IMG/VR virus record: IMGVR_UViG_2531839585_000005
Coordinates: 1 to 7,397 of that record
Length of the DNA stretch: 7,397 nt
DNA from: a virus
Taxonomy: Duplodnaviria; Heunggongvirae; Uroviricota; Caudoviricetes
Strand: one strand, 5' to 3'
In this document: piece after piece, positions 1-7,397 of the stretch
Position numbering within the stretch: position 1 is the stretch's first letter
Layout of the letters: the number at the start of each line of letters is the position of its first letter
The notes under the pieces: model-generated
Databases searched by the model: none
Seen by the model: only the letters and a program-made list of their open reading frames with translations
Told to the model about the DNA's origin: nothing
Position numbers and translations under genes: made by a program

Positions 1-151
1 CTGGATGACATCCGGGCGGGACGCATTGAGCGCGCCATTTCACGCTGTCGCAATATCTGGGCGTCCCTGCCGGGTGCCGGTTACGGTCAGCGTGAGCATT
101 CACTGGAAAAACTGGTCACCGTCTGGCGTACCGCGGGGCGTACCGGCTTAA
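1..151 (+). CDS. K: Phage endolysin, C-terminal part (lambda R / P2 K-type lysozyme); 5' end lies outside the window, 3' end uncertain
   Basis: Frame +1 from position 1 reads ...DDIRAGRIERAISRCRNIWASLPGAGYGQREHSLEKLVTVWRTAG..., matching the conserved C-terminal motif of lambda R-type endolysins (NIWASLPGAGYGQ.EH). Frame +1 has no stop until 229-231 and runs into the lysA ATG at 166. TAA codons sit in frame +2 at 149-151 and 158-160, so a 1-bp indel near 133-140 has probably displaced the true stop. Not in the ORF track because the start is outside the window. Confidence 0.65.
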   Translation, partial: WMTSGRDALSAPFHAVAISGRPCRVPVTVSVSIHWKNWSPSGVPRGVPA

Positions 152-165
152 ACGGAGTAAACACC

Positions 166-589
166 ATGAAGAAATTATCCCTTTCACTGATGCTGAACGT
201 GTCGCTGGCGCTGTGCTGGCACTGTCCCTGATTTACCCGCAGAGCGTGGCCGTCAGTTTTGTCGCCACCTGGGCGATTCTGGGACGGTTATCTGTGTGGT
301 TGCCGGTGGTGTCGGCGTGTATGCCACGGAGTATGTACTTGAACGCTACGGGCGGGAGCTGCCACCGGAATCGCTGGCCGTGAAGATTGTCACGTCGCTG
401 TTTTTGCAGCCGGTGCCGTGGCGCAGGCGGTCAGTGGCTCTGGTAGTGATGGTGGCGACGTTTATCTCGCTGGTCGCTGCCGGGTGGATTTTTACCGCGC
501 TGATTTATCTCGTGGCATCGGTGTTCTTCCGGCTGATACGTACGGCCTGCTGTCAGCGTTTTGAGGGGCGGGAACCATGTCAAAGCTGA
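166..589 (+). pseudogene. lysA: lysA-like lysis-timing membrane protein, frame-disrupted as sequenced (needs all three + frames)
   Basis: ATG at 166 sits 7-8 nt downstream of GGAG and opens MKKLSLSLMLNVSLAL in frame +1, which stops at 229-231. The continuation ...VLALSLIYPQSVAVSFVATWAILG is in frame +3 (about 213-283). The remainder, VICVVAGGVGVYATEYVLERYGRELPPESLAVKIVTSLFLQPVPWRRRSVALVVMVATFISLVAAGWIFTALIYLVASVFF..., is frame +2 and corresponds to track ORF 296-589. Hydrophobic segments fit a small membrane protein. The stop overlaps the lysB start. Position after the endolysin matches the P2 order K-lysA-lysB-lysC. Confidence 0.6.
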
Positions 590-1020
590 TGATTGTGCTG
601 GTTGTGTTGTTATCACTGGCGGTGGCCGGTCTGTTTCTGGTGAAACACAAAAATGCCAGCCTGCGCGCCTCGCTGGACAGGGCGAACAATGTCGCCAGCG
701 GGCAGCAGACGACCATCACCATGCTGAAAAATCAGCTTCATGTTGCCCTCACCAGGGCAGACAAAAACGAGATGGCGCAGGTGGCACTGCGTCAGGAACT
801 GGAGAACGCCGCGAAGCGTGAAGCACAGCGCGAGAAAACCATCACGAGGTTACTTAATGAAAACGAGGATTTCCGCCGCTGGTATGGCGCTGACCTGCCT
901 GATGCTGTGCGCCGGTTGCACCAGCGCCCCGCCTGCACCGACGCCAGTGATTGTCCACAACGCCTGCCCGAAAGTGAGTCTTTGCCCGATGCCGGGCAGC
1001 GACCCAGAGACGAACGGTGA
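577..1020 (+). CDS. lysB: LysB, Rz-like inner-membrane spanin (i-spanin)
   Basis: Intact 147-codon ORF. N-terminal MSKLMIVLVVLLSLAVAGLFLV is a single type-II membrane anchor, followed by a charged, helix-prone periplasmic domain (EMAQVALRQELENAAKREAQREK). GAGG lies upstream of the ATG. Sits in the P2 lysis cassette position and carries an embedded out-of-frame lipoprotein gene. Confidence 0.8.
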   Translation: MSKLMIVLVVLLSLAVAGLFLVKHKNASLRASLDRANNVASGQQTTITMLKNQLHVALTRADKNEMAQVALRQELENAAKREAQREKTITRLLNENEDFRRWYGADLPDAVRRLHQRPACTDASDCPQRLPESESLPDAGQRPRDER

Positions 1021-1147
1021 TTTAAGTGCCGATATCCGGCAGCTTGAGAACGCGCTGGCGCGCTGTGCCAGCCAGGTAAAAATGATTAAACACTGTCAGG
1101 ACGAAAACGATGCTCAAACCCGACAGCCTGCGCAGGGCGCTGACTGA
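857..1147 (+). CDS. lysC: LysC, Rz1-like outer-membrane lipoprotein spanin (o-spanin), starting inside lysB in the +1 frame
   Basis: ATG at 857 preceded by GAGG. Product MKTRISAAGMALTCLMLCAGCTSAPPAPTPV... has a lipoprotein signal peptide with a lipobox-like LCAGC and a proline-rich mature region. It is 96 aa, overlaps the lysB 3' end out of frame and extends past the lysB stop, which is the classic Rz/Rz1 overlapped architecture. The track ORF 740-1147 is the same frame with an upstream alternative start. Confidence 0.75.
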   Translation: MKTRISAAGMALTCLMLCAGCTSAPPAPTPVIVHNACPKVSLCPMPGSDPETNGDLSADIRQLENALARCASQVKMIKHCQDENDAQTRQPAQGAD

Positions 1148-1571
1148 TGCCGTCACGGTGCTGAAAACACCGAATGCTGCGGATATTCGTGGATACGGGA
1201 GTATTGCCTCCACGCTGGCGGCGTCGTTGTCATTCGAAAAGCGTTACACGCTCAATGTCATTGTGACCGACTTTACCGGTGATTTTGACCTGCTCATCGT
1301 GCCGGTGCTGGCGTGGCTGCGGGTAAATCAGCCCGACATCATGACCACCGACGCAGGTCAGAAAAAGGGCTTCACGTTTTATGCAGACATCAACAATGAC
1401 AGCAGCTTTGATATCAGCATCAGCCTGATGCTGACCGAGCGAACGCTGGTCAGTGAGGTGGACGGCGCGCTGCATGTGAAGAATATCCCGGAACCTCCGC
1501 CGCCGGAGCCGGTCACCCGCCCGATGGAGCTGTATATCAATGGCGAACTCGTGAGTAAGTGGGATGAATGA
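1110..1571 (+). CDS. R: Tail completion protein R
   Basis: Intact 153-codon ORF MLKPDSLRRALTDAVTVLK...FEKRYTLNVIVTDFTGDFDLLIVPVLAWL...PEPPPPEPVTRPMELYINGELVSKWDE, recognised as P2 gpR-family. Overlaps the lysC 3' end. Its stop is fused to the S start (ATGAATGA). Confidence 0.85.
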   Translation: MLKPDSLRRALTDAVTVLKTPNAADIRGYGSIASTLAASLSFEKRYTLNVIVTDFTGDFDLLIVPVLAWLRVNQPDIMTTDAGQKKGFTFYADINNDSSFDISISLMLTERTLVSEVDGALHVKNIPEPPPPEPVTRPMELYINGELVSKWDE

Positions 1572-3058: not shown

Positions 3059-3949
3059 ATGCCGATTATCGACCTGAACCAGCTACCTGCACCGGATGTG
3101 GTCGAGGAGCTGGACTTTGAAACCATTCTTGCTGAACGCAAGGCGACACTGATTTCTCTTTACCCGGAAGACCAGCAGGAGGCGGTCGCCCGTACCCTGA
3201 CGCTGGAATCTGAGCCTCTCGCCAAACTGCTGGAGGAAAATGCTTATCGTGAGCTTATCTGGCGTCAGCGTGTGAATGAGGCCGCACGGGCGGTGATGCT
3301 GGCCTGTGCCGCCGGTAATGACCTTGATGTGATTGGTGCCAATTACAACACCACGCGCCTGACTATCACCCCGGCAGATGATTCGACCATTCCGCCGACA
3401 CCGGCAGTGATGGAATCTGACACCGATTATCGTCTGCGTATTCAGCAGGCGTTTGAGGCTTAAGCGTCGCCGGGTCGGTGGGGCTATCAGTATCATGGTC
3501 GCAGTGCCGACGGGCGTGTCGCGGATATTCTGTACCAGTCCGTCTCCGGCCTGCGTCACCATCTCGTGCTGTCACGTGAAAATAACGGTGTGCATCCGAA
3601 GACTGCTGGCGGGTGCGTAACGCCCTTAATGGCGAGGACGTCAGGCCGGTGGCCGACCGCGTGACCGTGCAGTCTGCCGCCATGTTGAATACCAGATAAA
3701 CGCCACGCTTTACCTTTACCCTGGTCCCGAAAGGAACCCATCCGCGCGCCGCCGTGAAAAAACTGGAAGCTAATCACGGCACAGCACCGGCTGGGGCGGA
3801 CATCCGTCTGTCTGCCATTTATGCCGCTTTGCATGTGGAAGGGTGCAGCGTGTCGAACTGGCTGCACCCTGGCCGACATCGTGCTCAACAGTACGCAGGC
3901 GTCTTTCTGTACCGAATACCGCGTCGTGACCGGAGGCTCGGATGAGTGA
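3059..3949 (+). pseudogene. J: Baseplate protein J, intact for the first ~134 codons, then heavily frame-disrupted
   Basis: Frame +2 ORF 3059-3463 gives MPIIDLNQLPAPDVVEELDFETILAERKATLISLYPEDQQEAVARTLTLESEPLAKLLEENAYRELIWRQRVNEAARAVMLACAAGNDLDVIGANYNTTRLTITPADDSTIPPTPAVMESDTDYRLRIQQAFE and then hits TAA. Downstream, recognisable gpJ segments appear piecemeal across all three + frames: YQYHGRSADGRVADI, TSPSPACVTIS, VLSRENNGV, VRNALNGEDVRPVADRVTVQSAA, VEYQINATLYLYPGPE, VKKLEA, ITAQHRLGR, DIRLSAIYAALHVEG, LADIVLNSTQASFCTEYRVVTGGSDE. The final segment is in frame with a TGA at 3947-3949 that overlaps the I start. Full-length gpJ is about 300 aa as I recall. Confidence 0.8.
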
Positions 3950-4482: not shown

Positions 4483-6648
4483 ATGAGCACAAAATTCAGA
4501 ACCGTTATCACCACTGCCGGTGCAGCAAAGCTGGCAGCGGCAACCGCGCCGGGAGGGCGGAAGGTCAACATTACCACGATGGCCGTCGGGGATGGCGGTG
4601 GTAAATTGCCTGTCCCGGATGCCGGACAGACCGGGCTTATCCACGAAGTCTGGCGACATGCGCTGAACAAAATCAGCCAGGACAAACGAAACAGTAATTA
4701 TATTATCGCAGAGCTGGTTATTCCGCCGGAGGTGGGCGGTTTCTGGATGCGTGAACTTGGCCTGTACGATGATGCGGGAACTAATTGCCGTGGCGAACAT
4801 GGCCGAAAGTTATAAGCCAGCCTTGCCGAAGGCTCAGGGCGTTCGCAGACCTGCGCATGGTCATCATCGTCAGCAGTGTGGCCTCAGTGGGCTGACCATT
4901 GACACCACAACGGTGATGGCACGCAGGATTACGTTGATGACAAAATTGCAGACATGAACAGTCACGACGTCACCCGACGCCTCGCTGACCGCAAAAGGTT
5001 TTACTCAGTTAAGCATGCGACCAACAGCACGTCTGAAACACTGGCCGCAACGCCGAAAGCGGTAAAGGCCGCGTATGACTTGCTAACGGGAAATAACGCC
5101 AGGAGCCACCAAGCGCGAAAAGGCCTTGTCCAGCTCAGTAGGCCACCAACAGCGATTCTGAAACGCTTGCGGCAACGCCAAAGGCGGTTAAGACAGCGTA
5201 TGACCTTGCTAACGGGAAATACACTGCACAGGAGCCACCACGCGCGAAAGGTCTTGTCAGCTCAGTAGCGCCACCAACAGGATTCTGAAACGCTGGCTGC
5301 AACATCAAAAGCGGTGAAGTCTGCCTATGACAATGCTGAAAAACGTCTTCAGAAAGATCAGAACGGTGCGGATATTCCGGGAAAGGATACCTTCACGAAA
5401 AATATCGGTGCCTGTCGTGCTTATAGCGGCGCTTTGAGCACTGAAGCCGGAAACTGGACAACCGCTCAGTTTATTGAATGGCTGGATTCCCGTGGTGCAT
5501 TTAATCATCCGTACTGGATGTGCAAAGGCTCCTGGTCATATGCAAATAACAAAATCATTACGGATACCGGATGTGGTGATATCCACCTGGCTGGTTGTGT
5601 CGTCGAGGTCATGGGAACTAAATCTGCAATCACTATTCGAGTGACCACGCCGACAACATCAAGTGGTGGCGGTACAACCAGCGCGCAATTCACTTACATA
5701 AATCATGGGGACGGCTACTCCCCCGGCTGGCGTCGTGACTGGAATCGTCAGGGCGACGCAATGACCGGAACGATTAATCAGGATGGCGGAAGCCAGAATG
5801 CCTATATGTCTACGGCCTTATGTTCAGGCACCAGAGGCGGCAAAAAATATCTCAGAAAGTTTCGTGGTGGAGAAGGAGACACTATCTGGCATGAAACAGT
5901 ACAGGGCGGGGTAATTCGCTGGGCGACAGGAAACTATGACGCTCAGGAAGAATTATCACTCAGCTCCGCTTATGGTCTCCGTTCAAGAGGTGAGATTACA
6001 TCACTCAGTGCTAATGGTCTGCGCATTGCTTATGGCAATTATGGATTCTTTATCAGGAATGATGGCGGCAGCACATATTTAATGCTGACGGCCTCTGGCG
6101 ATAAATTAGGCACATAGAACAATTTAAGACCGCTGACTATAAATAACGCCAAGGGCGCAGTATCAATGGGGCATGGCCTGAATGTTACTGGTGATATTGT
6201 CTCAAGTACCAAAGTACGTGCCGGTAGCGGGAAAAAATTCACGGTCAGCAGCAGTAATACATCCACGAAGGAAGCCGCATTCAATTTGTGGGGAAACTCA
6301 AGTCGTCCGGTGGTGGCTGAATTAGGTGATGATGCAGGCTGGCATTTTTACAGTCAGAGAAATACAGATAACAGCATCACGTTTGCTGTTAACGGTCAGG
6401 TATCACCATCTAACTATAGTAATTTTGATTCACGCTATGTCCGGGATATCCGGCTTGGTGGTGCTGCCACATACAAACCTGCGAACAATGGCATGACATG
6501 GACACATCAGGCACCGTCCGGGTGTGTATATTCCGGCATTATTGTTCAGGATACCGGCTCAAACTCTGCCGATAACATTGGTGGCATATATTACAGACCG
6601 GTGCAGAAATACATTAACGGGACTTGGTATAACGTGGCGCAGGTATAA
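4483..6648 (+). pseudogene. H: Tail fibre protein H (mosaic). 5' third is frame-disrupted, one in-frame TAG at 6115-6117, otherwise continuous
   Basis: ATG at 4483 preceded by GAGG. Frame +1 reads MSTKFRTVITTAGAAKLAAATAPGGRKVNITTMAVGDGGGKLPVPDAGQTGLIHEVWRHALNKISQDKRNSNYIIAELVIPPEVGGFWMRELGLYDDAGT, the gpH N-terminus. From about 4778 the continuation (LIAVANMAESYKPAL, LAEGSGR, RMVIIVSSVASV, LTIDTTTVMA, then the ATNSTSETLAATPKAVK repeats) is scattered over three frames up to about 5280. From 5281 to 6648 a single frame +1 runs cleanly apart from the TAG at 6115-6117 (track ORFs 5314-6117 and 6166-6648). The C-terminus ...NFDSRYVRDIRLG...RPVQKYINGTWYNVAQV is the conserved P2-H-type tail-fibre terminus. 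Confidence 0.85.
5006..5337 (+). repeat. Three imperfect direct tandem repeats of ~126 bp inside H, encoding a repeated tail-fibre motif
   Basis: Copy 1 about 5006-5130, copy 2 about 5131-5258, copy 3 (partial, diverging) about 5259-5337. Each encodes a variant of QLSSATNS(T/D)SETLAAT(P/S)KAVK(A/T/S)AYDLANGKYTAQEATTARKGLV. The copies differ by substitutions and 1-bp indels. Confidence 0.7.
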
Positions 6649-7255: not shown

Positions 7256-7397
7256 AGAGCGGACGTTACTACTACTCGACCTAAAGTAAAGCAATTGTAC
7301 TCATTAAATAGTGGTAATTGGGTCTGGTGCTTAATCGAACGAAATCTCATGTTAGGCGAAAAAAACGTCTGAAAAATCGATTAACACATACACCTGT

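Follow-up and report, generated by a model that had tools for sequence, protein, structure and literature searches.

The displaced stop codon of the endolysin gene K and the splitting of lysA over three reading frames are real features of the deposited sequence, but they are a matter of data quality and not of biology. Judged from sequence comparison, the K/lysA frameshifts are very probably a consensus artefact of an assembly that collapsed two P2-like prophage haplotypes, and the comparisons show a contig that reads as a consensus over both, with bases at some heterogeneous columns apparently dropped. The lost bases lie on SNP sites, the assemblies of sibling colonies disagree with one another, and repair of the sequence restores known intact proteins.

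Source of the contig and genomic context

The window analyzed here, 7,397 bp in length, is the entire contig APZI01000619.1 from the draft genome GCA_000356865.2 of Escherichia coli p0305293.13, and it contains only the letters A, C, G, and T. It covers the late region of a P2-like (Peduovirus) prophage, including the 3' end of K, lysA, lysB, lysC, R, S, V, W, J, I, H, and G; the contig does not reach the N-terminal part of K. According to a previous study (PMC4309559), a sibling colony, P0305293.1, is a 2011 ETEC isolate from Bangladesh associated with cholera-like illness, and its sequencing was performed at GSCID. A multi-colony ETEC study from the same centre (PMC4462620) describes Illumina HiSeq2000 paired-end sequencing, the Celera Assembler, coverage of >200x, and 36-687 contigs per genome, and the abstract makes a general statement of clonal populations. 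From the strain naming and PMC4309559, isolate.13 would belong to this multi-colony study. The p0305293.x isolates are taken as clonal, based on the common patient identifier P0305293 and the general statement in the abstract of PMC4462620.

The closest complete relative, ETEC strain 120899 (NZ_CP025916.1, locus L001), was used as the reference, and the same prophage was compared in two sibling-colony drafts, p0305293.15 (AQBW01000091.1, locus L006) and p0305293.6 (AQCB01000052.1, locus L129). The K-lysA alignment set consisted of two E. coli prophages, P2, and Yersinia phage vB_YpM_46 (YpM46). In addition, 119 P2-like IMG/VR loci were collected with the 38-mer of the K-lysA intergenic region, 117 of which were usable.

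The locus is a standard P2 lysis cassette, and K and lysA hold nothing new. It resembles the Y-K-lysA-lysB-lysC cassette of Peduovirus in gene order and sequence, with lysB (577-1020, plus strand), which is intact and has no haplotype drop-outs, and lysC following as in P2. Compared with the P2 cassette, the deposited record is short of four bases, which puts the K stop out of frame and splits lysA, and this deviation belongs to the record, not to the phage.

K read-through and split lysA as deposited

The 3' end of K, which encodes a P2-type endolysin, occupies positions 1-151 on the plus strand, as do all features described below. Frame +1 reads ...LEKLVTVWRTAG, which is the C-terminus of P2 K at 100%, and its first 46 codons match the C-terminus of both P2 K and L001 K exactly, up to ...VWRTAG. 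Past the K C-terminus, the frame goes on as RTGLNGVNT-MKKLSLSLMLNVSLALCWHCP* through the lysA ATG at 166. As written, the final four residues of K are swapped for a 30-residue read-through, which is terminated, together with a LysA stub, by a spurious TGA at 229-231. It is frame +2 that contains the TAA codons at 149-151 and 158-160; the former is the native K stop, in frame only when two lost bases are put back. Both in the alignment to four independent relatives and in a pairwise alignment, these two bases map to 134/135, where relatives have T or C, and to 136/137, where they have C or T (reference GC[T]GG[C]GGC). Because of the net loss of two bases at 134-137, K enters the lysA frame and reads through to the TGA at 229-231.

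The gene lysA (166-589), which encodes P2 LysA of the NCBIfam DNZ54_00345 family, runs over three frames, namely +1 at 166-213, +3 at 214-282, and +2 at 283-589. The ORF from the ATG at 166, as written, amounts to 21 residues, the frame +3 part reads LALSLIYPQSVAVSFVATWAIL, and the frame +2 part reads TVICVVAGG...EGREPCQS*. One base is lost at 213/214, base 1 of LysA codon 17 (CTG[A]TGC), which is A in the L001-type sequence and G in the sequence type of another locus, L112. The other is lost at 282/283, base 2 of LysA codon 40 (CTGG[T]GAC), where the L001-type has T and the L112-type, like most relatives, has C. All four single-base losses are specific to the window when compared with the four aligned relatives (two E. 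coli prophages, P2, and vB_YpM_46).

The preliminary description of this DNA, which had a stopless frame +1 running into the lysA ATG with TAA codons one frame over, gave coordinates that were all verified, and the frame changes that it saw in lysA near 213 and 283 are placed by alignment at 213/214 and 282/283. Its prediction of a junk extension on K and of a LysA ended at 21 residues agrees with the translation, and the frameshift-aware alignment that it proposed resolved the four 1-nt losses in the K end and lysA. It had also considered that a native K might extend this far, with a short LysA conserved in relatives. This is not what was found among relatives, since the K-lysA junction is colinear, with neither an indel nor a shift of the K stop or lysA, in 111/117 usable P2-like loci. 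The read-through of the window is absent from the other six of the 117 loci, too.

Restoration of the four bases

With the four bases restored, K ends ...VWRTAGGVPA*, with its TAA 14 nt upstream of the lysA ATG, and LysA becomes a protein of 141 aa, which is the same length as P2 LysA. The C-terminus of P2 K followed by TAA is obtained only after this repair. The repaired LysA matches NCBIfam NF038378 with 116.3 bits (cut-off 40) over profile positions 1-124/124, and phrog_162 over 1-141/141. In the unrepaired sequence, NF038378 is matched only by the 97-aa frame +2 piece (profile positions 45-124, 66.5 bits); a full-length match in a single ORF is thus lacking as written and present after repair. 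When repaired with L001-type alleles, LysA is identical to an intact protein found on 142 contigs, including a 5.2-Mb record. A local Pfam scan of K and the repaired LysA gave no matches, and precomputed matches to PF28015:LysA exist on the fragments encoded by the contig. K and lysA are ordinary P2 lysis genes, very likely intact in the strain.

Coincidence of lost bases with haplotype SNPs

Between the L001-type and L112-type sequences, the part corresponding to window positions 1-306 contains exactly four SNPs (T>C, C>T, A>G, and T>C, from L001 to L112), and these correspond one to one to the four missing bases. The locus L112 was chosen post hoc among 111 relatives; the test with L006 was not post hoc. 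Two complete E. coli genomes contain the L112-type sequence with 100% identity and have both genes annotated, and a scan of IMG/VR for the G allele at the 213 site found L112 as the sole carrier.

In a three-way alignment of the window, L001, and L006, 22/29 deletion events unique to the window coincide with SNPs between L006 and L001, which occupy only 2.6% of the columns (binomial P = 1.4e-29; per-base hypergeometric P = 1.8e-36). The other 7/29 events are without an L006-vs-L001 SNP, and some of them, such as 213 and 1194, are accounted for by other relatives. These haplotype-pair tests were used in place of a polymorphic-column test on 120 loci, in which the background fraction of 0.84 was inflated by divergent or misaligned fragments.

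Downstream of the junction, the window carries L001-type alleles over 307-395 and then L112/L006-type alleles over 427-654. In addition, an in-frame TAG in H (6115-6117) is a chimeric codon, corresponding to TGG (Trp) in L006 and TAT (Tyr) in L001, so that base 2 comes from one haplotype and base 3 from the other. This stop codon is an independent sign of allele mixing.

Deletion pattern across the window

Relative to L001, the window shows 123 substitutions, one insertion, a loss of 133 nt, and 51 small deletion events, of which 46 remove 1 nt, four remove 2 nt, and one removes 3 nt. The small deletions form clusters at 134-282, 1168-1194, 2228-2272, 2526-2568, 3455-3868, and 4781-5280 (index of dispersion 4.45, reached by 0/10,000 permutations), and 39/51 of the small deletions lie outside homopolymers. 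Together, the clusters cover 1,179 bp, and all 123 substitutions fall elsewhere. As a baseline, L001 was compared with P2 and with YpM46, which gave 56-78 substitutions per segment and no indels; in the same segments, the window has only 29 and 32 substitutions, yet 8 and 23 deletion events. The error profile of the window is unlike natural divergence or prophage decay.

A local-deletion signature common to K-lysA and the genes V, J, and H had been noted in the preliminary description, and clusters are indeed present in all three genes. In V, there are two drop-out clusters (2228-2272 and 2526-2568, together spanning 2228-2568), the first of which has 3/3 events on L006-vs-L001 SNPs and no further SNPs in its span. 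The cluster in J (3455-3868) comprises 17 events, 10 of which are common to sibling draft.15. The cluster in H (4781-5280) comprises 19 events, and in its sub-cluster at L001 6318-6662, 13/14 events fall on L006-vs-L001 SNPs. Beyond what had been noted, the net -2 site in K is now located, and R is a fourth affected gene, with a cluster at 1168-1194 (four events and six bases, net -6) that stays in frame and is locally scrambled, giving a protein of 153 aa in place of 155 aa (window 1110-1571). The earlier reading of local deletions holds, and the cause is now refined to losses at sites of haplotype difference, not generic deletion or decay.

The H cluster also contains the 133-nt loss, which follows position 5141 (window 5141/5142, L001 6693-6825) and lies within a tandem repeat of H (L001 6565-7020, 132-nt unit, 3.5 copies, 89% match). 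It represents either one collapsed repeat unit or natural copy-number variation plus one dropped SNP.

A 30-mer over the K lesion had no exact match in genome, viral, and metagenome collections. Matches to window 1-600 were found in 1,557 E. coli genomes, all of them below 99% identity, and among the top matches listed, every one spans 604 nt against the 600 nt of the window.

Comparison with sibling-colony assemblies

The drafts.13,.15, and.6, as well as locus L121 (IMGVR_UViG_2537561687_000006), carry one allele, the other allele, or a gap at common SNP sites, in combinations that differ between them. At site 134 (L001 T, L112 C),.13 and.6 have a gap, and.15 and L121 have C. At site 136 (L001 C, L112 T),.15 has C, and the other three have a gap. 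Site 213 (L001 A, L112 G) is a gap in.13 only, with A in.15,.6, and L121, while site 282 (L001 T, L112 C) is a gap in all three sibling drafts and T in L121. At site 307 (L001 T, L112 C), no base is lost, with T in.13 and.6 and C in.15 and L121. The frameshift sets of.15 and.6 overlap that of the window only partly; in draft.15, K and V are intact, and lysA is short of the 282 base only.

Locus L121 lacks the C at 136/137 and mixes L001-type and L112-type alleles, and probably represents a further draft affected in this way. As well, a protein named P0106 (ENG46079.1 / WP_001663566.1), encoded on a 28.6-kb contig, is an intact 141-aa LysA with an L112-type N-terminus and an L006-type body. Its accession is close to those of p0305293.15, and it may represent a second, correctly assembled prophage copy of a sibling isolate.

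Downstream of G (window 7269-7397), the contig has an L001-type flank, and L006 diverges completely from its position 17144 onward. Such a divergence is consistent with two prophage copies that differ in their cargo at the Z/fun position of P2, and it may also account for the end of the contig.

Alternative explanations

E. coli often carries defective P2-like remnants, and many late genes are broken in the window, so that the lesions might be genuine pseudogenes of a decaying cryptic prophage with frameshift deletions in K, lysA, R, V, J, and H. Cryptic-prophage pseudogenes are similar in that late genes are cut by 1-nt deletions, and the 282/283 deletion, common to three sibling assemblies, would be expected of such a lesion. 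Here, however, there is no substitution excess, the deletions sit on SNPs, and the pattern is not reproduced among siblings. Deletions outnumber insertions by 51 to 1 with no substitution in 1,179 bp of clusters, intact relatives show substitutions without indels, the deletion sets differ between clonal sibling colonies, and the coincidence with SNPs (P ~1e-29) is predicted by no mutational process. Neither lesions reproducible in clonal relatives, with the exception of the 282/283 loss, nor a normal substitution-to-indel ratio was found, and we consider genuine pseudogenes very unlikely. Random base-calling or low-coverage errors, such as homopolymer miscalls and poor read ends, would involve no second haplotype. 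The source is a fragmented draft contig, and a cluster spacing of ~1 kb was at first suggestive of read ends. According to the multi-colony study, though, the data are probably Illumina at >200x; moreover, the 39/51 events outside homopolymers, the lack of accompanying substitutions or insertions, and the position of the events on SNP sites make this origin extremely unlikely. Sanger read-end or homopolymer errors were dropped as a candidate, because the source is most likely Illumina/Celera and the deleted sites are SNP sites. It is also conceivable that the losses occurred in vivo, with co-resident P2-like prophages recombining and a mismatched base in the heteroduplex being excised without replacement, in a way that varies by colony, which we regard as exceedingly improbable. 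A far more modest version would have the 282/283 loss alone as a true lysA frameshift in one resident copy.

Programmed frameshifting or read-through, which would produce a K-LysA fusion and a multi-frame LysA, could draw on the PHROG family phrog_17029, a 241-position profile that models a K-LysA fusion of 241 aa in the same register. This profile, though, fits the product of sibling p0305293.6 end to end (557.6 bits, 1-241/241), and so the family appears to be derived from, and founded on, the same assembly artefact. Among ~5.8 billion proteins, the K extension is covered only by the 76-aa product of the contig and the 241-aa product of sibling.6, which fall in the same protein cluster, while K and lysA are separate single-frame ORFs in 111/117 relatives. 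The P2-like tail-chaperone genes with a programmed -1 frameshift (E/E+E') are superficially alike in having one product over two frames, but that signal is conserved in relatives and located elsewhere in the genome, whereas the relatives of K-lysA have single-frame ORFs. The chance that recoding accounts for the observations is next to negligible.

Some apparent parallels were also set aside. A LysA of 97 aa in two other assemblies is a truncation at the contig edge, with the gene starting from nt 15 of 0.8-1.0-kb contigs, and the remaining entries of this kind come from a sibling draft. In Peduovirus P24B2, a single-piece tblastn fusion is a low-identity read-through, and K and lysA are separate genes there.

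Proposed origin of the frameshifts

As expected of a consensus artefact, indels are found on inter-copy SNPs (4/4 at the junction and 22/29 window-wide), and the sibling assemblies, taken to be of one clone, differ from one another at these sites. The read set of p0305293.13 would have held two closely related P2-like prophage haplotypes, with mixed alleles at the four sites, most likely from two prophages co-resident in one chromosome and less likely from mixed DNA. In E. coli genomes, up to 3 copies of the region and up to 7 matching places were found. The assembler would have fused both haplotypes into one 7.4-kb contig, keeping one allele or the other in some stretches and emitting no base at disagreeing columns elsewhere. 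At the K-lysA junction, four haplotype differences would in this way have become four missing bases; two losses in the last codons of K would bring it into the lysA frame, and two in lysA would cause its two shifts. As for the software step, the multi-alignment consensus may have treated tie columns as gaps, or ambiguity codes may have been written out and then removed. K (...TAGGVPA*) and LysA (141 aa) are almost certainly intact in each of the two real copies. The 282/283 loss in three siblings could be one real frameshift or a reproducible software outcome.

Similar to collapsed-repeat or collapsed-haplotype errors in overlap-layout-consensus drafts, the contig contains alleles of two near-identical copies, with changes at heterogeneous columns only, differences between siblings, an apparently collapsed tandem unit, and a chimeric stop. 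Unlike the usual errors of this type, the case is unusually clean, in that the polymorphic base is deleted and not miscalled or ambiguity-coded.

Consequences for databases

The frameshifts have no biological consequence and are a matter of data hygiene. The artefactual products of the contig have been deposited as END27409.1, END27410.1, and END27413.1, and artefact proteins are now in GenBank, RefSeq, UniRef, and apparently PHROGs. The signature of dropped heterozygous columns, namely clustered, deletion-only, non-homopolymer events in substitution-free clusters on known SNP sites, should aid the automatic flagging of similar contigs. In sibling p0305293.6 (AQCB01000052.1), the K-LysA "fusion" of 241 aa is encoded at L129 7316-8041 and was deposited as ENH57891.1. 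Finally, the scrambled R protein is present as END27413.1 in GenBank, WP_001503645.1 in RefSeq, and UniRef100_UPI0002C8B439 in UniRef.
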